Assembly: GCA_029856155.1 (NCBI GenBank)
Contig: JAHQWL010000023.1
Coordinates: 64,001-128,000, forward strand
Source of the DNA: Promethearchaeia archaeon
Lineage (GTDB): Archaea > Asgardarchaeota > Lokiarchaeia > Sigyniarchaeales > SOKP01
Direction of reading: 5' to 3'
DNA: 64,000 nt
Under the pieces are notes generated by a model. It was not told where the DNA came from, did no database searches, and saw nothing but the letters and a program-made list of their open reading frames with translations. Shown here one piece after another: positions 4,702 to 20,912 of this stretch. Made by a program: the position numbers and the translations under genes. Position 1 is the first letter of the stretch; each line of letters begins with the position of its first letter.

Positions 4702-6675
4702 ATGACTCATTTTAAAACTTATCCTTTTACTGCTATTGTAGGACAAGATCTTATGAAGCTTGCACTTATTCTAAACGCAATAAATCCAAAAATTGGTGGG
4801 CTCTTAATAAAAGGGACAAAAGGAACTGCAAAATCGACCACTGTAAGAGCTTTGGCAGATCTACTTCCTGAAATAAATATTATTAAAGATTGTCCATTTA
4901 ATTGTAACCCACACGATCTAAAAGAATCATGTCATGAATGTCAACATAAAATAATCGACAGAAAGTTGAAGAATAATGATATAGAATTTCGCAAAATGCG
5001 TGTTATTAATTTGCCTATAAATGCTACTGAGGATAGAGTAGTAGGGACGATTAACATTAAAAAGGCATTAGAACAGGGATTGAAAGCTTTAGAACCAGGG
5101 ATATTGGCAGAAGCAAATAGAAATATACTCTATATAGATGAAGTGAACCTACTTGCTGATAATGTAGCAGATGTATTATTGGATAGTGCAGCAATGGGAA
5201 TTAATATTATTGAACGAGAAGGTATTAGTATTCATCACCCTTCTAATTTTATCTTGGTGGGAACGATGAATCCTGAGGAAGGAAATTTGAGACCTCAGCT
5301 TTTGGATCGATTTGGATTAAGTGTAGAGGCAAAACCTATTTTAGATATCAATGAACGAGTTAAAATTATAAAATACGTTGAAGATTATCATATTGATCCT
5401 CATAAATTTCACGATAAGTTTGAAACTGAACAAAAATTATTAAGAGAGAAGATTGTTAAGGCTCGTGAAATTCTTAATAAAGTTAAAATTTCAGATGAAC
5501 AACTAGAAAACATTGCAAAATTATCTATTAAACTGGAAATTGATAGTCACCGCGCAGATATTGCTATAAATATAACAGCAAAAACTATTGCTGCTTTTCA
5601 TGGAAGAACAAACGTTTTAGATGAAGATATAAAAATAGCAGCAAGATTGGCATTAGCACATCGTTTAAGAAAACTTCCATTTGAAGAACAAAAAATAGAT
5701 GAAGATGATATCGAAAAGATGTTTGAAGAACAAGATAAGGAAGAAGCACAGAAACTGAATATAAATAATTCAGAACATCGAAATAATAAAGAAATTATAA
5801 ATCTAAAAGAGGAAATTTTCGGCATAGATACTAAGATATCTACAGATGGAATATTAGAAAAAAAAAGAATTGTAAAAGATATGAACACTTCTGGTCAAAG
5901 AATACTACACCCTACTCGTGATAAGAAGGGGAAATATATTGGTGGTCAAAAACCCAAAGATTTTAATTTTAGATCATCTTCGGATATTGCTGTTCTTGAA
6001 ACTATTAACAACGCCGCTTTAGAACCTGAAAATAGAAATGCTTTTAAAAATGGAGCAAAATTAGAGATTAAAAATGAACATATTCATATTAAGAAAAGAA
6101 TTGGAAAATCAAGCCATCTATTTGTTTTCTGTGTTGACACTTCGGGATCGATGGGAGCAAATGACAGAATGATAGCCGTTAAAGGAGTAATATTTTCTAT
6201 CCTTCAATCTAATTATGTATATCGCGATAAAGTCTCATTAGTTGTTTTTCGTGGAGAAGATGCAGAAGTTATTTTACCTCCCACTCGAAGTATTGATTTA
6301 GCATATAAATTGTTAAAGGAAATACCTACAGGAGGTACAACACCACTAATTAAAGGTTTAGTAAAAGCATTAGATATTGCTCTTGAAGAGAAAAGAAAGA
6401 AAACAGGATATATACCCTTGATCATTCTCATTTCTGATGCTAGAGGAAATGTATTTTATAAGGATGCTATAGACGATTTATTAAAAACTGGTAAAGAAAT
6501 TTCTAAAAATCTGATTGATATGATTATTATTGATACAGAAGGCTCGGATGTCAAATTAGAAATCAATAAAAAATTATCTGAATCAACAAATGCGAAATAT
6601 TATCATATTGATACCATGAATAAAGAAAAGGTGAATAAAATTCTGGGAATGGAAGGATTATTTGAAAATATCTAA
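4702..6675 (+). CDS. Magnesium/cobalt chelatase AAA+ subunit with C-terminal vWA domain (ChlI/ChlD-type)
   Basis: [18 protein letters not shown] Walker [25 protein letters not shown]; vWA DTSGSM and TGGTTPL. Confidence 0.92.
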
Positions 6676-6684
6676 TAGTGAATA

Positions 6685-9600
6685 TTGACTATGAATCAAA
6701 ATATAGATTACACGAGAGATACACCTAAAATAACATTAATTACAGCTTCTGTTTTTTTGAAATGGTTAACTGAAGGGATTCAAGAGATCTATAATCAATT
6801 TGGAAAGGTATTCGATTTTAAAATCTATTTTCTTAATGATTTGGACTCAGGAAAAATATCAAAAGAGGAAGTTAAAGAAGCTATTTATCAATCTAAAGTT
6901 ATGCTAATTGATATCCGAGGAAATTCTCCAACAGTTGAACTTTTGGTAAAATCTTATGAAGAAATGGAAAAAAATCAACCAGAATTATTTGATACCAAAG
7001 AAATAATCGCATTAGTAGGAGGAAATAGCGAAATAAGAGGTTTAACAAAAATGGGGGCCTTTCAAGCCCGAAAGATACCTTCTCCTCAAAATAGAGAGTA
7101 TAGTATCGATGAAATACCAGATTTAACGAAAGCAGTAAGATTTGGACAAAGAATGACTGAGTTTTTGAAATTTTTAGGAAAAGTGTTCCCTTTTAAATTA
7201 CTCAGACATGCGCGCTATTGGGTCATAATGATGGATTACTGGGTACATGGATTAGGAGGAATCGCTGAGAATCATAAAAACATGCTCCTGTTTCTTTTAA
7301 AGCACTATTTAGGATATAAGAATTTTAAGGTTCCCAAACCAAAAAAGATTCCCTCTTTTGGTATTTATGATCCTCAATTGAATGAATATTTTAATAATAC
7401 TGAAGATTATTTTAGAAAAAAGCCAATAGACCATAATAAACAAACTATAGGAATATTTTTTTATGGAGGATTATACTTTGAACAATCTTTACCTATAGTA
7501 AAATAATTTATGAAAAATTTCTCAGAATTTAATATTCTTCCTGTTTTTTCTGATGTTTTAACAAATGTAGAAGCTTATCAAAAATTATTTTTTAAAGGTG
7601 GAGTAAAATTAATAAGCGCTGTTATTAATCTTCAATATTTTCAGTTAAATGGGGGTCCTTTTGGTGGAGATACCTATATAACAAGGGATTTATTTAAAAA
7701 ATTAGATATCCCACAATTTAATCCAATTATACAATATGATATGCCTTTTGAGGAATATACTAAATCAAATGAAGGAATTAACCCCATTAACCAAGTGATT
7801 GCAATTGTAATGCCCGAATTAGATGGAAGAATAGAAATGATTACTGTTGGCAGTCTTAAAAATTTAGGATATTCTGATGATTTAAAATCCAATATTTTAG
7901 AAGTACAACCAATAATTGAAAATGTTAAATTCTATGCTCAAAGGGTTAAAAAATGGTTATATTTGAGAATAAAAGAAAATTCCGAGAAAAAACTAGCAAT
8001 TATTATTTACAACTATCCTCCTGGAGAAGATAAAATAGGTAATGCTGCATATTTAGATGTGTCTGAGTCAATCAAGAATTTAATAGAAAAATTGATTAAA
8101 GAAGGATACAATACAGAAAAAATTCCTGAAAACAAGAATTTAATGGATTTGTTTATTGATTTTGGTGCTGTAAATACACCAAAATATATGAATATCCAAA
8201 AATATAAAGGACATAAAGTCTCTGTACAAACCTATATTAAATTTTTTAAAAATCTTCCTTCACATCTCCAAGATGAAATTATTGAATATTGGGGACCTCC
8301 ACCAGGTAAGATTATGGTAGACAATTCACATCTCAAATTACCCATTATTCAATTTGGTAATATATATATTTGTCTACAACCCTCCAGAAGTAAAGTATCT
8401 GGAGATCCTAATGAATATCATAATAAGAATTTACCCCCTCATCATCAATATTTCGCTTTTTATCGTTATTTAGAAAATATTTTAAATATAGATGCCATAA
8501 TTCATTTTGGAACTCATGGGACTGCAGAATTTCTTCCAGGCAAGGAATGTGCTGGTTGGATTTATGATTTTAATTTAAACTTAATTAGTAGTATACCAAA
8601 TATTTACTATTATCATATTACAAATACTAGTGAATCAGCTATCGCTAAAAGAAGAAGTAATGCGATTATTATTAATCATGCTGGACCTTCATTCAAAAAC
8701 GCGGGATTGTATCAAGAATTTGCTCAGTTAGAGTTATTAATATCTGAATATCAAAATACAAACCTTTCTTTTAGCCTTAAAAACCAAAAGAACAATAGAA
8801 TCGATGATCTCGAAAAAGAAATTAAATATTTAGCAAAAAATATGAATATTGATTACGAACATATAGCAGAATTGGAAGATAAATTATATAGATATAAAGC
8901 TTCTGTAATTCCCATGGGGCTTCATACATTAGGAAAATCTTATTCTTCTCAACAAAAATTTGATCTAATTCGAATGATTTTATTACACTCAACTGAAAAA
9001 CCGGATTATGTCGAAGAATTTCTTTCTTATTTTAAGAACAAAGAAAAAATTGATGTAAAAAAGGTTAAAAAATACTTAAACACTTTTTTTGAGAGTAATG
9101 CAAATCAATTGTCTTTTGAAGATATAAATCAAAGGTTAGTATCTGAATATAGTATAAGTGAAGAAATAAATCAATTAACAATAAAATGGATATTGTCTTT
9201 AAAAAACAGAATTGAAAATTCTCTTGAATTAGACAATATCATCCATGCTCTGGAAGGAGGATATATTGAGCCAGGATTAGGAGGGGATCCAATCCGTTCT
9301 CCTCATATTTATCCAACTGGAAAAAATTCATATGGTTTTGATCCACGACTAATACCTAATTCTACTGCAATAAAACGAGGAAATGAAATAGCAGAAAAAT
9401 TAATTCAAAATTACAAAACTAATAATAATGAGTGGCCCGAAACTGTTAGTGTAGTACTTTGGGCTTTTGAAACTATGAAAACTGGGGGAGAAACTATTGG
9501 GCAAATTTTTAACTATTTAGGAGTTAAATCCATTAAAAATAAATCCATTTGGACCACTGAATTAGAAATCATACCTTTAGAAGAAATGAATCATCCGAGA

Positions 9601-10488
9601 ATCAATGTGATTATTACAATTTGTGGTATCTTTCGAGATACATTTCCTTATCATCTAGAATTAATTAATAAAGCAATTGAATTAGTAGCAGAGCTAAATG
9701 AAGATGTTGAAAATAATTATGTGAAAAAATCGATGTTTACATTGAAACAGAAAGGAGTAGAGAATGTCGAAGCACGTGTATTTGGTCCACCTCCAGGAAA
9801 ATATAATACAAATTTAACAGAGATAATAGCAGCTGGAAAGTGGGATGATGAGACAGAATTGGCAGAAGATTACCTTAAAAATATGAGTTTTGCATATATG
9901 AAGAACCAAAAAGTAAGACAATTAGAAAAGAATTTTAGATTAAATATTAATGAAATTAAATTAATGAGTCAAATAAGAGATTCGAGTGAATATCAAATAA
10001 CAGACTTAGATCACTACTATGAGTTTACTGGAGGATTAGCTCGTACATACAAACAAATTAATGGAAAATACGCAAATGTTTATATAGCAGATTCTTCTAG
10101 TAAAGAAATTAAAATAAATACTTTAAGGGAAAGCATTAAAGAAGGCGCAATAACGCGTTCTTTGAATCCTAAATGGATTAATGGTTTATTAAAGCATAAG
10201 TATCATGGCGGTCAAAAAATAGCTGAAAGAGTAGAAAACTTTCTTGGCTTATCTGCTACAACTCATGAAGTAGATAACTGGATTTGGGATAAAGCATATA
10301 ATCAATATATAGAAAACGAAGAATTGAGAGAAGGTTTAAAGGATAATAACAGGTTTGCAATGATGGACATAATAAAAAATATGCTTCAAGCTAATAACAG
10401 AGGTTATTGGAGTGCTAATGAGGAACAAATAAATAATTTGAAAAAAATTTATCTTGAAATAGAAAATTGGGTTGAATTAAAGTACTAA
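6685..10488 (+). pseudogene. cobN: Cobaltochelatase CobN/ChlH-family large subunit interrupted by one in-frame TAA at 7504-7506
   Basis: ORFs 6685-7506 and 7510-10488 share a frame; motifs PELDG, YNYPPG, HFGTHGTAEFLPGK, PTGKN, ICGIFRD, DLDHYYEF, NPKWINGL. May be a sequencing error or a split gene. Confidence 0.8.
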
Positions 10489-10507: not shown

Positions 10508-11419
10508 TTATACTAAATGATGAAATTCTTCAGCATTAATAATGACTTCTTTTAAAATTTGAAAGTTTTTATCCTCTCCATGAATTAAAAATATCTTATT
10601 TTTGATTGGAATTGCTGCTTCTTTTCCGATTAAAACCCATTCTTCTTTAGTTAAATTTCTAACTATTGAACCTTCTTTAAATTTAATATAAACTAATGCT
10701 CCTAAAAAACCATTAAATTTAGTTTCTTCAAGTTTCACATCTTCAAAGTCGGGAATTTCATTATTTTTACCTTCATTTTTAATCTCATATTCAGTCTTAC
10801 TCAATAGCAAGTTCAAATTAGCTTGAATTAAATTATTATCATTCTCTATATTTCTTTTATGATTATACTCGAAAATGATGAGACCACATTCCTGTGTAAA
10901 TGTTCCTTTATGACCTATCAGTTCATAATCATATACTATTCGACCTAAAGATTCTGAATGTTCGATAACTTCTGATTTAACTTTCCACCTCTTTGAAATA
11001 AGAGGTTCTATGTATTTTTGAGAACCAGGATGAATAGTATCAATCGTTAACTCTTTTTTTTCTTGATATAGTTTATCTAGAGTATCGCCAATATACAACC
11101 TCTTTTGTTTTAGTTTCTCAATCTTTACTTCCAAATTATCTACTATTTCATTAAAAATTTCCAATGGGGGTTTAGCTATAAATTTCATCCTTCGAGGTTG
11201 TTTCCTTATTTCTAAAATCTCAATCCAACCTTTATCACTTAGTTTTTCTAATATTCCATATAATGTTGTACGTGCAATTTGAAGATTATATTTTAATCTT
11301 CCTACCATATCACCATTATGCCCTCTTTCAACTAGTGCTAAATAGACTGTAGCTTCGTCAGCAGTTAAACCAAAATCTTGTAAATCTTGAATATATATTT
11401 CTTTTTCCTTATCTTTCAT
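10508..11419 (-). CDS. TrmB-type HTH transcriptional regulator with uncharacterised C-terminal domain; paralogue of the C-terminal two-thirds of 17913-19163
   Basis: LQDFGLTADEATVYLALV...IARTTLYGILEKLSDKGWI...FIAKPP; shares CGLIIFEYN and IPDxEDxKxExTK with the 17913 protein. Confidence 0.85.
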   Translation of the reverse strand: MKDKEKEIYIQDLQDFGLTADEATVYLALVERGHNGDMVGRLKYNLQIARTTLYGILEKLSDKGWIEILEIRKQPRRMKFIAKPPLEIFNEIVDNLEVKIEKLKQKRLYIGDTLDKLYQEKKELTIDTIHPGSQKYIEPLISKRWKVKSEVIEHSESLGRIVYDYELIGHKGTFTQECGLIIFEYNHKRNIENDNNLIQANLNLLLSKTEYEIKNEGKNNEIPDFEDVKLEETKFNGFLGALVYIKFKEGSIVRNLTKEEWVLIGKEAAIPIKNKIFLIHGEDKNFQILKEVIINAEEFHHLV

Positions 11420-11461: not shown

Positions 11462-11493
11462 TATATAAATATGTTGTCGAGATAGGACGACAA
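11462..11493 (-). promoter_or_regulatory. TATA box (TTTATATA on - strand) with adjacent TTGTCG-N8-CGACAA palindrome
   Basis: tatataaa at 11462-11469; TTGTC at 11474 and GACAA at 11489; lies between divergent regulator and methyltransferase genes. Confidence 0.65.
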
Positions 11494-11557
11494 TAAGAAT
11501 TTATTTAAATAGAATTCTTATTTTTGTTTATTTAGATAATTTAAAAATTGAAATGAG

Positions 11558-12259
11558 ATGATAATTGTGAGTAAAAGTAAAAAAATATGTGAAAGAATCC
11601 CTGAAGGTGAAGCAATATTAGATCAGATTGACTTCACAACAGAAGAATATAGTGAAGCATGCAGAAAAATGGAAGGAGAATATCGGCGTTTGATAAATTT
11701 TATATTTAAAAAACTTGATATTAAAGAAAATTCAAAAATTTTAGAGATCGGGCCAGGACCAGGATGGATTGGAATTATGATGGCAAAACAAGATCCTTCA
11801 CTGACAATAATTGGAATTGAACTTTCTAAAGATATGATGCGTGTAGCTAATAAAAACATAAGAAAGGAAGGTATTGATGATCGAATTTCTTATATTCACG
11901 GAAATGCTGAAAATATGTATCAATTTTTAGATAACACATTCGATGTTGTTTTTGGAAATGGTACCCTTCATCATTGGGAAAATCCAGTGAAAATTATTAA
12001 CGAAATTTTTAGAGTTCTTAAACCAAATGGAATTTTTTGTATTTCTGATGGTCGTCGAGACATAAGATTAGGAGCAAAAGTAATTTTTCATACAATGAAA
12101 TGGTTTATCCCTAAATTTATGAGAATTGGTTGGAAAACTTCGATAAATGCGGGATACACACCTGAAGAATTAACAGAAATATTAGATCAATCAGATCTAA
12201 AAGGAAAATATGAGTTAAAAACTGATCTTTTTGATCTATTAGTTTATAATAAAACTTAA
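11558..12259 (+). CDS. Class I SAM-dependent methyltransferase (UbiE-like)
   Basis: ILEIGPGPG motif I, FDVV, LHHW, RVLKPNG. Confidence 0.9.
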   Translation: MIIVSKSKKICERIPEGEAILDQIDFTTEEYSEACRKMEGEYRRLINFIFKKLDIKENSKILEIGPGPGWIGIMMAKQDPSLTIIGIELSKDMMRVANKNIRKEGIDDRISYIHGNAENMYQFLDNTFDVVFGNGTLHHWENPVKIINEIFRVLKPNGIFCISDGRRDIRLGAKVIFHTMKWFIPKFMRIGWKTSINAGYTPEELTEILDQSDLKGKYELKTDLFDLLVYNKT

Positions 12260-12279
12260 TTTAAAAAAGGGCAGAACAA

Positions 12280-12747
12280 ATGCCGCAAATTGTAAAGGGA
12301 GGTAAGCACTTATTTGGATGGTCAAGAGTAGGAAATCAAGGTAAAATTAACATTCCTCCCGAAGCTTTTAATGAGTATAATTTAAAACTGGAGAAATACG
12401 CAATCTTATTTTCAGGTAGTAAAACTTCAGGTGGATTTGGATTAAGTTCTGTGAGGATTTTAGAAAATTCTATCATGAAAGAACTAATAGATAAAAACTC
12501 TTCACTAGCTAATTATAGGATACCTGAGGGAGAGTTTATTGAATTTAAAAATAAAAAGTACTGTTGGGTAGCAATCCAAAAAGATAGTAGTATAAATCTA
12601 CCAGAAAAAACTTTACACGCTTTTGGAATTAATAAAAATGATGATTTGCTTTCTGGAAGGGGTAGCCATTTAGCTATCGGATTTATCGCAAAAGGACCAA
12701 TCTTTAAAGAAGCAAAAAAACATCCTGAAATAAAGGTCTTTGAATAA
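12280..12747 (+). CDS. Hypothetical protein, probable tandem AbrB/SpoVT-like fold
   Basis: FGWSRVGNQGKINIPPEA and second SINLPEKTLHAFGI repeat resemble swapped-hairpin motifs. Confidence 0.55.
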   Translation: MPQIVKGGKHLFGWSRVGNQGKINIPPEAFNEYNLKLEKYAILFSGSKTSGGFGLSSVRILENSIMKELIDKNSSLANYRIPEGEFIEFKNKKYCWVAIQKDSSINLPEKTLHAFGINKNDDLLSGRGSHLAIGFIAKGPIFKEAKKHPEIKVFE

Positions 12748-12821
12748 TAGTTGAAAAATTATCATTTAATTAAAAATTTCATCATTTAAAAATAAAAAAA
12801 ACTTAAGTTTTGATTTTTAGT

Positions 12822-13646
12822 CTATCCCCGAAATCTTTTTTGCAGAGTCTTTCCATGTAGAAAGAATGACAGGAATAAAAAAATAAATCCAAACAGCAAT
12901 AAAATTGTAAAATCGAATAATAATCCACAAGTACCAAATGAACTATTTCCTCCTAATCCTGTATTAATTATATCAATAAAATAAGTTAATGGAGATATAA
13001 CAGCTAGTGGAGTCGAACTTATTGGCATAAAAAGAGGACTGATAAATATTAATGGAAATTTAATTAGAAATGTTAAAATCATTGTATTTGCTGGTATATC
13101 GGTTGGAGGTACTGATAATATCAAACTAAAACTCGAAAAAGAAAAAGCTGCTACAATTATACCGATAATGACAATTAATAAATCTATGGAAACTTGGATG
13201 GATAAGAAGATTATCCCTAATACAAGAGGAACCAAAGAAAATAATACTCCAAAAATCGAAGAACCCCAAACACTGCCTAATAAGACAGTTTTGATTGAGA
13301 TGGGACATGTTATTAATCTTTCAAGAGTTTGTTGTCTCGTTTCCCATGGAAATACAACAGGTCCGATGGATGTAGATGTTAAAAATAAAACCATGGCCAT
13401 TAATCCAGAAATCATATAAATTGGCTCAATATTTCGCCCAATTGTAAAAGCAAAAAAAAGGATGACTGGAAATAATATTCCTTGAATTACGACTGGACCT
13501 TTATTATAATAAATTCTGAAATCTTTCTTCGCAATAGCAAAAGATCTTCTTATTTGAGTAATTATTTTTTTAATTTTAGATTGTTCTAATATAAAAGCTT
13601 TTTCGTTAATCTTATCCACCTCCCTCAATAATTTTGAGAAAAGCAT
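12822..13646 (-). CDS. ABC-2 type exporter permease
   Basis: AIAKKDFR, WETRQQTLERLITCPI, ISPLTYFID; about six TM segments; true start probably downstream of 13646. Confidence 0.88.
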   Translation of the reverse strand: MLFSKLLREVDKINEKAFILEQSKIKKIITQIRRSFAIAKKDFRIYYNKGPVVIQGILFPVILFFAFTIGRNIEPIYMISGLMAMVLFLTSTSIGPVVFPWETRQQTLERLITCPISIKTVLLGSVWGSSIFGVLFSLVPLVLGIIFLSIQVSIDLLIVIIGIIVAAFSFSSFSLILSVPPTDIPANTMILTFLIKFPLIFISPLFMPISSTPLAVISPLTYFIDIINTGLGGNSSFGTCGLLFDFTILLLFGFIFLFLSFFLHGKTLQKRFRG

Positions 13647-14604
13647 CTTCTAAAGTTGGCTGGTGAGTATTTAATTGAGTTATTTTTAGGTTATTCAATT
13701 TAGCATGGTTAACTATTTCATGTAATGCATCGTTCACATCTTCCACAATAATATGATAACCATCTTTTATTTCTTGCACTTCTTTAACGGTCATTAGATT
13801 TTTAATCCCTTTTATTTGTTGTGCATTCTCGTAATAACAATCAATTGCGAGATAGTCTTGAGTTAATTTTTTTAAATTATCGGGGGTATCCAACCTAATA
13901 ATGTGTCCATTATTAATTATGGCTATTCTATCACAGAGCTCATTAGCAACACCCATATCATGTGTCGTTAAAAATATAGTCATTCCTCTTTTGTTATAAT
14001 CTTTGATTAATTGTTTGATTACACGAGCAGATTGAATATCTAATCCACTTACAGGCTCATCTAGAAATAATAATTTTGGTTTATTCATTAACGCCATACA
14101 TAATAATAATCTTTGTTTCATTCCTTTGGAATACTTTTTTGCTTTGAAATGACGCTTTTCAAACAGTTCAAACTTCTTAAGTAAAATTTCGGCACGATTT
14201 AGATTTTCCTTTTTATGAATTCCATATAACTCTCCAATGAATGTTAAATTTTGAAGGGCAGTGAGATCCATATATACATTTGCCATCTCGGGAACATTAC
14301 CGATTATTTGTTTTATTGGTATTGGATGGTTCCATATATCTTCTCCAAATATCTTAATTCTTCCTTTAGTAGGTTTTAATACGCCTGTTAACGATCTAAT
14401 AGTAGTGGTTTTCCCTGCCCCATTTGGCCCTAAAAAACCAAAAATTTCTCTTTCTTTTACTACAAAACTAATATTGTCTATAGCCTGAACAGTTTTATCT
14501 TTACTCTTTTGAATTTCCTTACTCTTTCTACTTTTTTTTCCTTGTTTAGCTATTTTAAAATATTTTGATAAGTTATTTACTGTTATTGCATTCATAATTA
14601 TCAC
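13612..14604 (-). CDS. ABC exporter ATP-binding protein (DrrA-like)
   Basis: GPNGAGKTT, YSKGMKQR, LFLDEP, TTH, C-terminal PTLEDAF. Confidence 0.93.
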   Translation of the reverse strand: MIIMNAITVNNLSKYFKIAKQGKKSRKSKEIQKSKDKTVQAIDNISFVVKEREIFGFLGPNGAGKTTTIRSLTGVLKPTKGRIKIFGEDIWNHPIPIKQIIGNVPEMANVYMDLTALQNLTFIGELYGIHKKENLNRAEILLKKFELFEKRHFKAKKYSKGMKQRLLLCMALMNKPKLLFLDEPVSGLDIQSARVIKQLIKDYNKRGMTIFLTTHDMGVANELCDRIAIINNGHIIRLDTPDNLKKLTQDYLAIDCYYENAQQIKGIKNLMTVKEVQEIKDGYHIIVEDVNDALHEIVNHAKLNNLKITQLNTHQPTLEDAFLKIIEGGG

Positions 14605-14646
14605 CTTTAGAAATAAAATGAAAAATAATTAAGAGATTAATTAGAG

Positions 14647-14802
14647 CTACTCATCCTTATCTAAAAGCTCTATATGTTTGAACAACTCTGAAAGTGATTG
14701 ATCACCATGATACTTAATAACCTGATTTATAGAACAACCGTTTGGATGATTCTTCTTAATTTCTGGATGTGAACAATCACACTCTTGTTCTTTTATTTTC
14801 AC
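14647..14802 (-). CDS. Small Cys/His-containing protein (51 aa), absent from the ORF track
   Basis: GGTGA SD just before GTG; MKIKEQECDCSHPEIKKNHPNGCSINQVIKYHGDQSLSELFKHIELLDKDE; co-oriented with and directly upstream of the ABC genes. Confidence 0.6.
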   Translation of the reverse strand: MKIKEQECDCSHPEIKKNHPNGCSINQVIKYHGDQSLSELFKHIELLDKDE

Positions 14803-14950
14803 TTTTCACCATTTATTGCTTTATTATACTAGGTTTAATAATTCAATTTAAAATTTATTTAGTTAAATATTGAATTTAACCAATCAAAATTTTTATTTAA
14901 ATATTTCTTATTTTATATTATAGTCATAAAGATTAGAAAATTAAGATGTT

Positions 14951-15301
14951 ATGAAAGAAATTGAACTCTCTGAAATAGAAGATTACGTACGTCCATTACA
15001 CTGTGGAATTCGATGGAAAATAATTGAATATTTAAGAGATGATCCAAAATCTTCTGATGAGATCTTTAATCATTTAAATGAGTTAAGAGAAAAAGTAGCA
15101 GAGGAAATGAAGTATTGTAAAGGAGAATGCAATCATGTTATAAAAAAAAAGTTGAAAAAACCTACATTATATTATCATTTGAGAGAATTAGAATCAGTTG
15201 GAATCATTTTAATGGAAGAATACAAACCTAGCGAACAAAAAAGAGCTCCAGAAAAAGTTTGGAACTTGATTATGGAGAAATTAATCATAAATTTAAAATA
15301 A
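14951..15301 (+). CDS. ArsR-like winged-helix regulator
   Basis: LHCGIRWKIIEYL...KPTLYYHLRELESVGII; CxxxC insertion. Confidence 0.75.
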   Translation: MKEIELSEIEDYVRPLHCGIRWKIIEYLRDDPKSSDEIFNHLNELREKVAEEMKYCKGECNHVIKKKLKKPTLYYHLRELESVGIILMEEYKPSEQKRAPEKVWNLIMEKLIINLK

Positions 15302-15443
15302 ATGTCTGCTTTTTCATCAATTCTGAAGAATACTAACCGCAATAGAATCATTCTTTAATCTATTTTGTAGTATATTCGATAATTATATACTAATAGAATT
15401 CAAAATTATGATTTATTTTCTTTTCATCAATACATTTAAATAG

Positions 15444-15504
15444 TATGATTCGTATGATCATATTAATATGATCATACTTATATGATCATATCAATATGAA
15501 TCTT
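15444..15504. promoter_or_regulatory. Array of TATGATCATA palindromes (candidate AbrB-type operator)
   Basis: Perfect copies at 15453, 15467 and 15481 (14-bp period); partial copies at 15444 and 15495; just downstream of TTTAAATA. Confidence 0.7.
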
Positions 15505-15509
15505 AAAAG

Positions 15510-15968
15510 GTGATTAAAATAACTGAATTTCCTGATAAAAAAGGCAAATATTTTTTTGGCTCAGTAAAGGTTGGGGAACGCGGTCAAATTGTTATTCCTC
15601 TTAAAGCTAGAGAAGTTTTTGGAATTGAAGCTAAAGATAATGTATATATTTTTGGTGAATTAAATAAGGGTTTAGGTTTAACTAAAAATGTGGAAATTGT
15701 TAGTAAAGAGTTAAAAAAACACGAATACTATTTTGGTGCTGCTAAAGTTGGTGAAAGGGGTCAGATTGTTATTCCCCAGGAAGCTCGAGAGATCTTTAAA
15801 ATAAACTCTGGAGATCTTATTCTTGTATTTGGAGATATTAAAAAAGGGCTTGGCTTTACTAAAGCAACTAAATTAAAAAATTTTGCTATCAAGCTGTTTC
15901 AAGCATTTGGAGATGGTTTTGAGGATATTCAGGATAATAATAAAGGTGATTTAAATGAAGAAGAATAA
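15510..15968 (+). CDS. Tandem AbrB/MazE/SpoVT DNA-binding domain protein
   Basis: Two copies of KVGERGQIVIPxxARE. Confidence 0.9.
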   Translation: MIKITEFPDKKGKYFFGSVKVGERGQIVIPLKAREVFGIEAKDNVYIFGELNKGLGLTKNVEIVSKELKKHEYYFGAAKVGERGQIVIPQEAREIFKINSGDLILVFGDIKKGLGFTKATKLKNFAIKLFQAFGDGFEDIQDNNKGDLNEEE

Positions 15969-16488
15969 AAAACAATCAAATATAGATTTTAGGTTTATGT
16001 CATTTTTCTTTAAAATTCGTGATAGATTTCACCCGCCTATAGCAAAAATTATAAAGGCTAATATTAAGCAAGGAGAAATTGTTTTAGATTATGGGTGCGG
16101 TTCAGGAAGTTATACAATAGCTGCTGTTGAGATAGTAGAACCAAATGGGAAGATTATTGCTGCAGATATTCATCCATTAGCATTGGAAAAAGTTAGAAAA
16201 AAAGCTGAAAAAAAAGGTTGTACTAATATTGAAACCATTCAAACAGATTGCGCTACTGGATTAGATAATGAATATATTGATAAAGTAATTTGTTTTGATG
16301 TATTTCATGACATCCCTCATAAAAATGATATATTAAAAGAATTTCATCGAGTTTTAAAATCAAAATCAATACTTTCTTTTGATGATCATCATATGAATGA
16401 AGATGAGATAATAGATTCCATCACTTCCAAAGGGCTCTTTAAATTGGCTGAAAAGAAGGATCAACAATATAACTTTATTAAAATCTAG
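15955..16488 (+). CDS. Class I SAM-dependent methyltransferase
   Basis: VLDYGCGSG, AADI, EFHRVLK. Confidence 0.9.
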   Translation: MKKNKKQSNIDFRFMSFFFKIRDRFHPPIAKIIKANIKQGEIVLDYGCGSGSYTIAAVEIVEPNGKIIAADIHPLALEKVRKKAEKKGCTNIETIQTDCATGLDNEYIDKVICFDVFHDIPHKNDILKEFHRVLKSKSILSFDDHHMNEDEIIDSITSKGLFKLAEKKDQQYNFIKI

Positions 16489-17271
16489 GTGGAAACAAGG
16501 ATGGAAGATAAACCTAAATATGGATGGTATGTGAAGGATCTAATTATTGGATTCACTATCATAGGATTAATAGGATTATCTGCTTTTATTTACGGATTTT
16601 TAATAGACGGTATAGCGCAAATAATTCTAATAATTTCAGGAGTAGCTGTTGTTTTGGTATTTTTATGGCCAGGTATCGGAATGATAGTATTGAATCTATT
16701 TTTATTGCGAAAAATACCAAAAATAGATTTAATTGCTAGAATGAAAGCATTAGATAAAATAAGTAATCCACAGATTTTAGATGTTGGATGTGGAACTGGA
16801 AGAACAGCAATTAAGATTGCTAAGGCATTAAAAAATGGAGGACATTTATTTGGAATTGATATTTATTCGAAAATGGCAATTTCAGGAAATAGTTTAGATA
16901 CCGTACAAAATAATGCTATAGTTGAAAAAGTAGAAGAAAGAACTACGTTTAAAAATGGTTCTGCTATAGACATCCCTTTTGAAAACAATAGTTTCGATAT
17001 CGTTATTGTTTCTTCAGTACTCCATGAAGTACATGATCAAAACGGTCAAGATAAAGCAATGAAAGAGCTTTATCGAGTTTTAAAACCGGGTGGATATCTT
17101 TACTTGAGTGAATGGAACCGAACATCATGGCAATTAATAGCATTTAGTGGCTTGTGTTGCTTTGTTTTTAAGCATAAAGATTACTGGGAGAAATTACTCA
17201 AAGAAAATAAATTTAAGAATATAATATATGAGAACATCACAGGCTTTGGAATTTTTACCGCAAGAAAATAA
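16489..17271 (+). CDS. Membrane-anchored class I SAM-dependent methyltransferase
   Basis: Two N-terminal TM helices; ILDVGCGTG, PFENNSFD, RVLKPGG. Confidence 0.9.
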   Translation: METRMEDKPKYGWYVKDLIIGFTIIGLIGLSAFIYGFLIDGIAQIILIISGVAVVLVFLWPGIGMIVLNLFLLRKIPKIDLIARMKALDKISNPQILDVGCGTGRTAIKIAKALKNGGHLFGIDIYSKMAISGNSLDTVQNNAIVEKVEERTTFKNGSAIDIPFENNSFDIVIVSSVLHEVHDQNGQDKAMKELYRVLKPGGYLYLSEWNRTSWQLIAFSGLCCFVFKHKDYWEKLLKENKFKNIIYENITGFGIFTARK

Positions 17272-17279
17272 ATTTTTTT

Positions 17280-17822
17280 TTATTCTATTTTTTTATATTT
17301 AAAAATAATACCTTCTTCAATCCAACTCCAATGTAACATTGGTCGTCTAAATTCTCCTTCAAATTCAAAACTAGATTTTTTTATCTGTTCTTGGACTTTA
17401 TTTAATTCAATTCCATAAGAACCTATATGAGTAGCATGATAAGATAAAAATCCGGATTTATCTTTTAAAACTCGATGTATTTCATTTAATAATTTGATTC
17501 TATCGTCTTTATCGAGTAAATGATACACATCATACATTAACACAACGTCTATAAAATTGTTCTTCAATGGAATCGATATTTTTTTCGAAGTCTTTATGAT
17601 TTCGATATTCTTAATATTTTGAGACTTAATTTCAATAGATAATTCCTCTAAATGATCTTCATCGTAATCAAGAGCATAAATTTTACCAGTATTTCCTATA
17701 ATTCGCGAAGCAATTATTGAATATACTCCTGTTCCACATCCAAAATCTAAGATTTTTTGTCCACTTTTAATTCCAAATTCTCTAAGTATACTTTCTCCCT
17801 TTGAATTTAACCATTCTTCCAT
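17280..17822 (-). CDS. Class I SAM-dependent methyltransferase
   Basis: ILDFGCGTG, YALD, EIHRVLK. Confidence 0.9.
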   Translation of the reverse strand: MEEWLNSKGESILREFGIKSGQKILDFGCGTGVYSIIASRIIGNTGKIYALDYDEDHLEELSIEIKSQNIKNIEIIKTSKKISIPLKNNFIDVVLMYDVYHLLDKDDRIKLLNEIHRVLKDKSGFLSYHATHIGSYGIELNKVQEQIKKSSFEFEGEFRRPMLHWSWIEEGIIFKYKKIE

Positions 17823-17912
17823 GTTTATTTCTAATCTTTATTATTTATTAAAATAAAGGATATGAAAAATTTCTATAAAAAGAAAGAATTGTGAAAAATA
17901 TAAAAATAACCT

Positions 17913-19163
17913 TTAAAGTTTTAAGATAATACTCAATAATATTGGAAATTGTTCTTCAGAACCCCAAACGACATAGATTTTATTTTGAATAGGAACAGCT
18001 ACATGCCTAGCCGCCACAATCCAATCCAACCCAACATTATTTCCAGTCTCGGTTTCTTCTTTAAATTTAAAATACATTGTCATTCCTAAATAATCTTGAA
18101 TTTTTGTATCCTCAATTTTAATATCTTCTAGATCTGGAATCGTAAATTCTTTAATATCAAGATCAGGTTGTATCGGTTCTCTCATTTTTTCTGAAGAAAG
18201 CTGTAATGCTGCTCTGATGATAACTTCTTCCTTTATTTTTTTATTATATTCAAAAATAATGAGACCACAATCCTTTTCTTTTCCTACTATTCCAAGGGAG
18301 TTAAAGTCAAATGATTTTTCGCTATATAATTGAAAATCTTTCTTTATTTCTGAGATATCTATCCATCCATTCTCAAGAGTTTCACCCATTATATATCGAA
18401 AACTCTTTAAAATCTTTAATTCCTCTTCTTTTTGTTGAATTCTTTCATCAAATATGCTTGTTAAGGGTCTTGCTACAAAATATTGTGCACTTTTTGGCAA
18501 TAATGGCAATTTAATTATCCATTCTTTACTAATTAAGCGATCAATAATACGATATATAGTTGTTCTTTTAATAGATAAATCTTCATCTAACTCACCTACT
18601 TTTGCCCCTTCATTCCCCTTTCTTAGCAATGTTAAATATACTTTTGCTTCTTCAATACTCAATCCAAATTTAAGTAATCCAAGTTCTTGCAAATTATTAG
18701 TATCATCAAGAAGTATTCTTGGAGTAGCCCATTTTAATTCTTCTACTTTTCCTAATTGGGTATCTAAATCCATATATGGCTTTTTTGTACTTAATTCACT
18801 TAAAGTTCGAGATGCTTCCATCATTCCAAGTCGCATCAATCCATCAGGAGCAATCTTACAAATAATTTTCCTCTCATCGTCTTTAAACCCTAAAATTCCT
18901 CCTTTTTTAATAGGATCTATCCCTACCAATCTTTCAGGAGTACACTGAATTATTAAATATTTTATATCTGAAATTGTAAGAGAAGTATGTTTCATTGATT
19001 TCCAAACTGAATTAATTTCATTAATATCACCACTAATATTCCAATTCTTTGTTGAATATTCTATTTCGTTTTCTCCTTTAATTATTGCTGCTGATATTGT
19101 TTTCGATTCAGACTTTATTAAATTCTTTAGAGCATGCTTTACTTTTTCCATATGTAGAATCAT
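17913..19163 (-). CDS. Profilin-like domain fused to TrmB-type HTH and uncharacterised C-terminal domain
   Basis: aa ~5-135 match the lokiarchaeal profilin pattern as I recall it (SAAII...YSTKNWNIS...W...KYLIIQCTPERLV...GGILGFKDDERKIICKIAPDG...MEASRTLSELSTKKPY); aa ~160-250 FGLSIEEAKVYLTLL...IKRTTIYRIIDRLISKEWI...FVARP is TrmB-like. Confidence 0.8.
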   Translation of the reverse strand: MILHMEKVKHALKNLIKSESKTISAAIIKGENEIEYSTKNWNISGDINEINSVWKSMKHTSLTISDIKYLIIQCTPERLVGIDPIKKGGILGFKDDERKIICKIAPDGLMRLGMMEASRTLSELSTKKPYMDLDTQLGKVEELKWATPRILLDDTNNLQELGLLKFGLSIEEAKVYLTLLRKGNEGAKVGELDEDLSIKRTTIYRIIDRLISKEWIIKLPLLPKSAQYFVARPLTSIFDERIQQKEEELKILKSFRYIMGETLENGWIDISEIKKDFQLYSEKSFDFNSLGIVGKEKDCGLIIFEYNKKIKEEVIIRAALQLSSEKMREPIQPDLDIKEFTIPDLEDIKIEDTKIQDYLGMTMYFKFKEETETGNNVGLDWIVAARHVAVPIQNKIYVVWGSEEQFPILLSIILKL

Positions 19164-19199
19164 TATCTCTTTTTATGTATATTAAAAAAAAAATAAAAA

Positions 19200-19403
19200 T
19201 TATTTTTCTCCAAATTTCTTTTTTATTTCATCTAATACTTTATCATAATAGCTTTTTTCTTTAGATTCTTGAATTTTTGTGAAATATTCCGGCATGATTA
19301 GTCTCTTAGATTCATTTTTTATCTCCTCATCTGTCCAAATTATCCCATCATCCAATATGATACAAGGTATACCATCCAAAAGTTTTATTCGTATCATTTT
19401 CAT
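19200..19403 (-). CDS. Small hypothetical protein (about 67 aa) between actin and the profilin-TrmB gene
   Basis: Track ORF 19200-19493 overlaps the actin 3' end; ATG at 19403 avoids the overlap (MKMIRIKLLDGIPCIILDDGIIW...YYDKVLDEIKKKFGEK). Confidence 0.65.
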   Translation of the reverse strand: MKMIRIKLLDGIPCIILDDGIIWTDEEIKNESKRLIMPEYFTKIQESKEKSYYDKVLDEIKKKFGEK

Positions 19404-19432
19404 CACTTTTAAATATTTTTTGTTGAAACTGT

Positions 19433-20578
19433 TTAAAAGCATCGATGGATAACTTGGGGTCCCATCTCCTTGTATTCTCTTCGAGTAATCCACATTCTAT
19501 GAAATGTTTTTAAGGAACTTAAGATAGATCCTCCTATCCACACAGAATACATTCTTTCTGGAGGAGCGATTATCTTTACATCTATAGATTCAGCAACCTG
19601 TTCTTTTATTTCTCGAGTTAAACGCTCTTTAATTCCGGGAAACATTGTAGAACCGCCTGAAAGGACAATATTACTATAAAGATCTCTGCGTAAATCTACA
19701 TCACATTCAGATATTGCTCCTACCACTTCATCATCTAGAGGAGCTAATTCTTTACCAATCACAGAAGGATTAAATAAGCATTCTGGAGCCAAGAATCTTT
19801 CAATCCCTATTGTGATAGTTTCACCATCAGGAAGCATGAAATTCTTTGCCATACCAGCTACCTTATTTGAAAGTAAAATCTCTTTTTCAGGATCAATAGC
19901 AACATAGCAAAGCTTTTCTTTTATTTCTCTTACAATCTCTTTCTCAGCTGATGTATAAAAGGAATATCCATTTTGACGTAACAATCTCTGTAAATATGTT
20001 GTAACATCCCTTCCAGCAAGATCAATTCTCTGGATTGCATGACTTAAAGCAAATCCTTCAAATATTGGTACTATATGAGCTACTCCATCACCAATATCGA
20101 TTACACATCCTGTTGTTCGACCAGAAGCGTAAAGTGATAATACTGCTTGAGTTGCTATATAAAGCGCCGGAACATTAAATGTTTCGAACATTATTTCTGC
20201 TAGTTTTTCTCGATTTGATCGAGGATTCAATGGAGCTTCAGTTAATAATATTGGGTACTCAGATGGATCAATTCTTAAATCAGTATAAAATGTATAATGC
20301 CAAATTCTTTCCATTGCTGGCCAATCTTCCACAACTCCATGCTCAATAGGAAATTGTAAATTCATTATTCCTTTTAATTCCATCGCTTCTTCACCAATAT
20401 ACCATTCTCGACTATAATCCTTTACATCGGGCATTATGTTTCCATATTTTGGTTTACCAATCACAGTAGGAAACACTGAACGTGGCTGATCTTCTCCTCC
20501 AAATCCATTTTTTGATATTCCGGTCCCATTATCTATAACAATAGCTCTATTATTTCTAAAATCCCCGTTGACTGAAAT
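19433..20578 (-). CDS. Actin (Lokiactin-like), 381 aa with proposed ATT start
   Basis: Frame upstream of the track start encodes AIVIDNGTGISKNGFGGEDQPRSV; also FPIEHG, LLTEAPLNP, QAVLSLYASGRTTG, DIGDG, IKEKLCYVA, LPDG, NIVLSGGSTMFPG, APPER, WIGGSIL, C-terminal HRCF. Confidence 0.97.
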   Translation of the reverse strand: MSVNGDFRNNRAIVIDNGTGISKNGFGGEDQPRSVFPTVIGKPKYGNIMPDVKDYSREWYIGEEAMELKGIMNLQFPIEHGVVEDWPAMERIWHYTFYTDLRIDPSEYPILLTEAPLNPRSNREKLAEIMFETFNVPALYIATQAVLSLYASGRTTGCVIDIGDGVAHIVPIFEGFALSHAIQRIDLAGRDVTTYLQRLLRQNGYSFYTSAEKEIVREIKEKLCYVAIDPEKEILLSNKVAGMAKNFMLPDGETITIGIERFLAPECLFNPSVIGKELAPLDDEVVGAISECDVDLRRDLYSNIVLSGGSTMFPGIKERLTREIKEQVAESIDVKIIAPPERMYSVWIGGSILSSLKTFHRMWITRREYKEMGPQVIHRCF

Positions 20579-20767
20579 TTTAAAACCACCTCTTTTTTTG
20601 ATTATAAGAACTGAATTTTATTAAAGGAATCAATAATTAAATAGATAGTAGACTATTTTTCTTGGAAGATATTCCCAGAAATGATCTAATGTTGATTATC
20701 CATAGAATTCATATTTGATTCCTAAATTTAATAAAACTTTTTCTTGTTGTAATGATATTTTAACTAG

Positions 20768-20801
20768 TATATAAACTTTGTCACATCATCGTGACAAAGT
20801 T
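20768..20801 (-). promoter_or_regulatory. Actin-operon TATA box with abutting perfect 11-bp inverted repeat
   Basis: AACTTTGTCAC-atcatc-GTGACAAAGTT at 20774-20801; tatataaa (TTTATATA on -) at 20768-20775. Confidence 0.75.
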
Positions 20802-20912
20802 GTGCCATTAATATAACAATTTAAAAAAAAATATTTGAAAATTAGTATTATTTGAATTGACGGCTCTATATACCTTATAATGTTTATAGGAATAATTAAA
20901 TTTAAATAAAAA

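Follow-up and report, generated by a model that had tools for sequence, protein, structure and literature searches.

The DNA analyzed here, referred to as the window, is a 64,000-nucleotide stretch (positions 64,001 to 128,000 of contig JAHQWL010000023.1, our C26) of a 4.1-Mb Lokiarchaeia metagenome-assembled genome (MAG) with 30% GC, and the nearest related loci came from MAGs of Promethearchaeota (Lokiarchaeia). It encodes two related TrmB-type winged-helix regulators, A and B, associated with two divergent or upstream palindromes (sites A and B), and regulator B lies just downstream of a second Lokiactin gene, here called actin-2. The features of the two loci are given below in window coordinates (BRE, recognition element for transcription factor B, TFB; ORF, open reading frame; SAM, S-adenosylmethionine).

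10508-11419, minus: regulator A, 303 residues; TrmB-type winged helix (Pfam PF01978, E 5.5e-11), long putative dimerization helix, Mog1/PsbP-like C-domain
11462-11469, minus: candidate TATA box of regulator A, whose spacing from the site is not conserved in orthologues
11474-11493: site A, core 11475-11492 (TGTCG-N8-CGACA), between two divergent TATA boxes; in 22/22 orthologues
11504-11511, plus: putative TATA box serving the divergent methyltransferase unit, with a gap of 11 nt to site A; weak BRE
11558-12747, plus: methyltransferase unit, likely activated target of regulator A
11558-12259, plus: class I SAM methyltransferase (Pfam)
12280-12747, plus: ORF of 155 residues in the methyltransferase unit, AbrB-like in appearance, without a Pfam match
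17913-19163, minus: regulator B; Asgard-type profilin (about residues 1-124), linker, TrmB-type winged helix (PF01978, E 1e-10), Mog1/PsbP-like domain
19184-19193, minus: T10 run, terminator-like, between the actin-2 unit and regulator B
19200-19403, minus: conserved ORF of 67 residues, no Pfam match; in roughly half of the cassettes
19433-20578, minus: actin-2, a paralogue (85% identity) of the housekeeping Lokiactin encoded on contig C4
20768-20775, minus: TATA box of the actin-2 promoter; TTTAWATA conserved in orthologues
20778-20797: site B, core 20779-20796 (TGTCAC-N6-GTGACA), right arm over the BRE; full site in 40/42 orthologous promoters, half-site in 42/42
20801-20818: second site (TGT-N12-ACA) in tandem with site B, 22 bp upstream of it; weak, scoring only 2.8 bits here

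Sites A and B are the two perfect TTGTC-N10-GACAA 20-mers of the window, and the minus-strand sequence TTTATATA lies 4 nt downstream of site A (at 11462-11469) and 2 nt downstream of site B (at 20768-20775); a preliminary description of this DNA had reported both palindromes, their coordinates and these TATA distances correctly, as is seen directly in the sequence. The expectation for the window is 0.06 copies, and none of 100 shuffled sequences gave two. Genome-wide, sites A and B were the only perfect copies against about 1.8 expected, and the N10 spacer was not enriched relative to other spacer lengths; chance would yield as many copies, and the case is one of position and conservation. The preliminary description had proposed a genome-wide scan and phylogenetic footprinting as checks on the motif; the scan returned background frequency, yet placement at orthologous promoters was strong, with TGTC-N10-GACA in the methyltransferase-facing divergent promoter of 22/22 regulator A orthologues (43-100% identity) and a site at 40/42 actin-2 promoters, compared with 5 of 3076 upstream windows in the genome (0.16%). 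The arms are longer than first noted and differ between the sites, namely TGTCG-N8-CGACA at site A and TGTCAC-N6-GTGACA at site B. The arms are invariant whereas the spacer is free and not self-complementary, as expected of a site for a dimeric protein. A conserved dyad, a free spacer, a fixed distance to a TATA box and co-occurrence with the regulator gene, which together mark an operator, were all found. A scan with a sigma-70 promoter model, which is not applicable to archaea, gave matches at shuffle level.

The actin-2 promoters (n = 42, from 41 genomes in four genera) all carried a (G/C)ACA half-site at the BRE, 3-6 nt before the TATA box, and 40 of them a full site within 16 nt of it by a permissive pattern, the common form being TGTCAC-N6-GTGACA. 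Half-sites recurred at -3, -14 and -25 and at -21, -32 and -43 from the TATA box, and these 11-bp steps make the actin-2 element a phased array. At most loci the perfect palindrome ended 3-4 nt from the TATA box, on bases read by TFB; in one genus the best full palindrome was displaced by one turn, to 14 nt. Neither the site nor a regulator B neighbor was found at any of 18 housekeeping-type Lokiactins, three extra housekeeping-like copies included. When 161 genomes were scanned without selection for site B plus TATA box, a match was obtained once in each of 27 genomes and none in the controls; 26 of these were known actin-2 promoters, and the remaining one lay at a contig end before an actin-2-like start. 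These results support the earlier proposal to the extent that the motif is an operator-like site conserved in this family of regulators and the actin gene a probable target.

Actin-2 was 85% identical to the contig C4 Lokiactin versus 27-40% to the three other actin homologues of the genome, and by sequence it is a close relative of the conserved Lokiactin, which is near-universal in Asgard archaea (PMC9834061), rather than an ARP-like homologue; it is not the housekeeping copy. It represents a faster-evolving duplicate (mean pairwise identity 83%), and four of nine family-wide differences fall in or beside the D-loop (query positions 41, 45, 48 and 51). Regulator B always followed actin-2 (42 loci), and the system is limited to one Lokiarchaeia family (about 40 of 161 genomes), which marks it as an invention of this lineage rather than an ancestral trait of eukaryotes. 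One genome (G118) had two complete cassettes (L071 and L062), and in others Lokiactins close to the housekeeping type, in tandem or as extra copies, lacked the operator (L131 in G103; L132-L133 in G030). The product of the ORF between the two genes has a DGIPCI hairpin at its N-terminus, and its C-terminal amphipathic helix gives the impression of a loose likeness to WH2-type actin-binding helices. The actin-2 leader (window 20579-20744, minus strand) occurred in a short form, with about 55-70 nt from TATA box to start, and a long form of about 165-215 nt, whose extra ~130 nt could be aligned between some genomes (L006, L007, L050, L056 and L058) and may be a structured or regulatory leader.

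The conserved N-terminus of actin-2, and with it translation, starts at an ATT (20578) behind the Shine-Dalgarno (SD) sequence GAGGTG (20587-20592), the listed GTG start being too late. The ATT was present in 12/12 close actin-2 loci, several of which have in-frame stops just 5' of it, and other clades have ATG or TTG there. ATT is apparently a regular start codon in this genome, as seen both at window 20576-20592 (minus strand) and genome-wide, where 13 of 22 SD-led long ORFs without ATG, GTG or TTG had an ATT in frame 4-12 nt downstream of the SD; this use in other ORFs, together with the ATG or TTG of other clades, weakens the idea that the ATT is a special low-expression device. Standard gene callers will shorten ATT-start genes, actin-2 included. 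A literature search on ATT starts returned nothing.

At site A, the divergent methyltransferase lay no more than about 1 kb away in 22/22 regulator A orthologues. The site was 11 nt from the methyltransferase-side TATA box at 20 loci and 12 nt at two, whereas its distance to regulator A's own TATA box varied from 1 to 12 nt or no such box was found. The methyltransferase BRE was weak (mean match 2.4/5 vs 3.9/5 at actin-2), and a fixed distance next to a poor BRE is the geometry of an activator. A class-wide scan for this geometry (161 genomes) gave 22 matches, 20 at regulator A promoters and two in unrelated coding DNA, against one match in the control. The preliminary description had read overlap with the BRE as repression at both promoters. 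That reading is plausible at actin-2, given the half-site just before the TATA box in all 42 promoters, but at site A, where it amounted mainly to auto-repression, it is not supported, given the variable own-TATA distance and the fixed distance on the methyltransferase side.

Regulators A and B were 34% identical over 285 residues and have in common the PF01978 winged helix (42.6 and 41.6 bits vs a cut-off of 25.6), which in B follows the profilin, and the C-terminal domain; the helices ARTTLYGIL and KRTTIYRII quoted for them earlier were confirmed in the translations. The probable start of regulator B is the ATG at 19151, and in its model a helix (residues 230-254) follows the wing; a match to TrmBL2 was obtained at E 9.5e-4. 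The shared C-domain (model pLDDT, the predicted local distance difference test, 93.5) had no Pfam match, and Foldseek returned nothing at E<0.001. Its best VIA matches, at middling Z values of 6-8.8, grouped in the Mog1/PsbP fold and were headed by TM1622 (Z 8.8; root-mean-square deviation 3.9, 116 aligned), the PknH sensor (8.1) and human Mog1 (7.1); the TrmB sugar-binding domain was absent from the matches listed. The modeled fold suggests a difference from the two-subdomain TrmB sugar/effector-binding domain, a family missing from the list being still a possibility. Instead of the TGM or TACT-type motif and sugar genes typical of the TrmB family, we found TGTC-N10-GACA beside actin and methyltransferase genes, and the name TrmB-type winged-helix regulators suits the two proteins better than that of sugar-sensing TrmBs. 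They form sister clades (100/100) in a larger regulator family that is nearly confined to one family of Lokiarchaeia, and its outer members carry related TGTC arrays (32/47 vs a background of 3.5%). These outer members (L035-L041 and L088-L127; up to seven matches per genome) lie at divergent promoters, where the arrays begin 7-9 nt away from the TATA box on the other side, and their partners include membrane-anchored methyltransferases and a gene that by eye starts like diaminopimelate epimerase. Within regulator B, no covariation of helix and site was detected, the RTHIY variant tracking no site change.

The actin-2 site was kept in 32 genomes without a detected regulator A orthologue, and site A in 13 genomes without an actin-2 match; nine genomes had both loci. 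Mean scores on the own and the other matrix were 20.5 and 11.4 bits for A sites and 23.1 and 12.9 bits for B sites. With the window sites withheld from training, site A scored 21.3 bits with the A matrix but 7.3 with the B matrix, and site B 25.6 bits with the B matrix but 15.6 with the A matrix. In matrix scans of the genome under the same condition, sites A and B were the top intergenic matches, and no third intergenic site was found, from which we conclude that both regulons are local; a global regulon had one further candidate, C69:17777, which was rejected as it overlaps a start codon. None of the other profilin fusions of the genome was found to have a site, nor was its housekeeping Lokiactin or any of its three divergent actin homologues. 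The simplest reading is that the palindromes represent two cognate operators inherited from a duplication, and we consider it likely that they are distinct, with actin-2 under the control of regulator B. Cross-talk, mainly by regulator A on the actin-2 site, is possible in view of the score of that site on the A matrix.

The N-terminal domain of regulator B matched the Loki profilins 5zzb/5yed (phmmer E 2e-8) as well as Odin profilins, and its modeled fold matched profilin in Foldseek (E 2e-8; TM by target 0.71-0.80). Although below the Pfam Profilin cut-off (15.9 vs 25 bits), by fold and sequence relationship it is an Asgard profilin. A model of its complex with actin-2 reached 0.66 compared to 0.24 for the best control and used the canonical barbed-end surface; runs agreed in at least 91% of contacts with partner pLDDT of at least 83, and the mark applied is reached by 58/80 solved versus 2/110 mismatched pairs. 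None of the 23 modeled actin-side interface positions differed between actin-2 and housekeeping actin, so the pool read by regulator B would be that of all actin monomers; the idea that actin-2 has co-adapted to the profilin was rejected on the same count, no selectivity being predicted. Three more profilin-domain fusions with unrelated C-termini were noted (G000 C2:4522-5850, C34:33450-34109 and C21:21139-21831); two of them are 41-47% identical to the profilin of regulator B, and the one on C2 looks by eye like a leucine carboxyl methyltransferase.

We propose that regulators A and B act as sister, locally acting winged-helix dimers with one operator each. Regulator A, on site A one helical turn 5' of the methyltransferase TATA box, would help TFB at the weak BRE and activate the unit, and it may also damp its own divergent promoter. 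Regulator B would occupy the 11-bp-phased array with its proximal half-site over the BRE and block TFB, so that repression of actin-2 is the probable outcome. Read-through of the T run into regulator B, encoded just downstream, would close a feedback loop. The earlier suggestion that site B heads a unit containing regulator B is plausible in that none of 31 gaps before regulator B held an operator, but the T10 run intervenes. In the most speculative step, the profilin would bind monomeric actin of either copy and change promoter occupancy, and the spare actin would follow the free-actin pool. That the profilin-winged-helix fusion reads this pool and switches actin-2 through the phased operator over the BRE is a tentative proposal, to which we give somewhat less than an even chance.

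Several points weigh against this interpretation. The counts come from orthologue genomes that are related to one another and are therefore not independent; absences in MAGs mean 'not found with the query used' and are provisional; and 39 of the 42 regulator B loci were chosen via the regulator itself. The ACAA end of site B is also a good BRE (mean 3.9/5), which makes its conservation partly basal, and the TrmB position rule could be read as activation at site B too. A run of at least seven T was present in 22/31 orthologous gaps before regulator B. Solved profilin-actin complexes exist, and the passing complex model may reproduce them; the predicted actin-contact residues of the profilin domain were less conserved (0.49) than the rest (0.60, including the buried core). 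The other profilin fusions of the genome have neither an actin neighbor nor a site, so profilin may be a general (mobile) sensor module, and the shared Mog1/PsbP-like C-domain offers an alternative signal input.

This last point leads to the rival that survives best, namely that regulator B is cognate to its site but reads a small molecule or partner through the C-domain, with the profilin a passenger or a binder of something else and actin-2 a stress-induced spare. The C-domain is present in all family members, most of which lack profilin, it is better conserved than the profilin domain (0.69 vs 0.57), and the family's neighbors are methyltransferases, ABC exporters and ArsR regulators. The profilin fusion, however, was found only in the regulator clade beside actin-2 and is kept throughout that clade, and the complex model gave a canonical barbed-end interface. 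This account agrees with our proposal until the sensing step; we regard it as a serious possibility, if one that falls somewhat short of probable. Activation of actin-2 by regulator B from distal sites, the proximal 'half-site' being mostly BRE, is rather unlikely: it would suit the genus with its best palindrome 14 nt from the TATA box and the usual activation by TrmB-family sites upstream of BRE/TATA (PMC4158304), but most palindromes end on TFB-read bases, and the BRE is strong, unlike those of TFB-RF1 targets. The preliminary description had favored a single operator and regulon, with A and B interchangeable and repressing both units. A common core, an equal span of 18 bp, the RTT(I/L)Y helices of the two sister proteins, the 15.6 bits of site B on the A matrix and loci less than 10 kb apart in six of the nine genomes with both speak for this idea, which we nevertheless judge improbable: the sub-motifs score about twofold higher on their own matrices (site A 7.3 bits on the B matrix) and persist where the other regulator was not found, each module occurs alone in many genomes, the genome has no third intergenic site, and relative to the divergent gene site A is placed like an activator site. 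Explanations by chance, basal promoter elements or RNA hairpins, despite the chance-level genome count and the 11-bp arms of site B in this genome, are extremely unlikely, as the sites lie upstream of the TATA boxes with variable genes further upstream, the arms are invariant rather than covarying with the spacer unpaired, and other promoters lack sites.

The proposed cognate operators with position-dependent effects have parallels. Regulators A and B resemble TrmB, TrmBL1 and Tgr in the PF01978 winged helix, long helix and C-domain, and in a palindrome near BRE/TATA with position-set activation or repression and autoregulation, which are predicted here; activating TrmB proteins have their site upstream of BRE/TATA, position deciding between activation and repression, and the TGM motif of the Thermococcales proteins is TATCAC-N5-GTGATA (PMC4158304). 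Unlike TrmB, the regulators described here have the site TGTCAC-N6-GTGACA, a Mog1/PsbP-like C-domain, regulons of one or two promoters, actin and methyltransferase rather than sugar genes as targets and, in regulator B, a profilin in front. The activator TFB-RF1 (PF1088) of Pyrococcus furiosus binds a palindrome at a fixed distance just upstream of a weak BRE (PMC5937170); site A shares this geometry and the tiny regulon, whereas the motif there is TCTG-N5-CAGA and TFB recruitment, shown there, is predicted here. The profilin of regulator B resembles stand-alone Asgard profilins (5yed/5yee, 5zzb, 5zza and 7pbh) in sequence, fold and modeled barbed-end actin surface, but it is fused to a DNA-binding regulator and its actin binding is a prediction. 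In animals, free actin controls the transcription factor MRTF-SRF, whose hundreds of targets include actin genes, by means of RPEL motifs, a MADS box and nuclear shuttling. If actin sensing holds, regulator B would be like it in logic only, with no homology, combining profilin and winged helix with direct operator binding at one target. We know of no cytoskeleton-binding domain fused to the haloarchaeal regulator CdrS. CdrS is a ribbon-helix-helix transcription factor for ftsZ2, a tubulin-homologue target (PMC7439475), and, as proposed for regulator B, it is an archaeal factor dedicated to a cytoskeletal gene paralogue. A literature search that mostly excluded subscription journals gave no published operator of an actin gene in Asgard archaea and no regulator dedicated to one, and we found no paper on the TGTC-N10-GACA motif, the actin-2/regulator B cassette or a profilin-regulator fusion.

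The profilin domain of regulator B is what makes the locus interesting. Were actin binding to modulate regulator B, it would constitute a cytoskeleton-to-transcription feedback in archaea, via a eukaryote-type actin binder fused to an archaeal regulator, and, among the closest relatives of eukaryotes, a counterpart of MRTF-SRF without homology to it. In the sister pair, a single motif family is placed as for an activator at one promoter and as for a repressor at the other. The locus, with its named protein, target promoter and site of 18 bp, is testable in vitro without culturing the organism.

Two further loci were noted in the window. An ABC-2 exporter (window 12822-15301), led by a Cys/His ORF of 51 residues (14647-14802) and divergent from an ArsR-type regulator, is part of a methyltransferase-rich island shared with the site A unit. 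A fused ChlI/ChlD-type AAA+/VWA protein and a CobN-type chelatase occupy window 4702-10488 (plus strand), and the CobN part is apparently split by a single stop codon into ORFs at 6685-7506 and 7510-10488.

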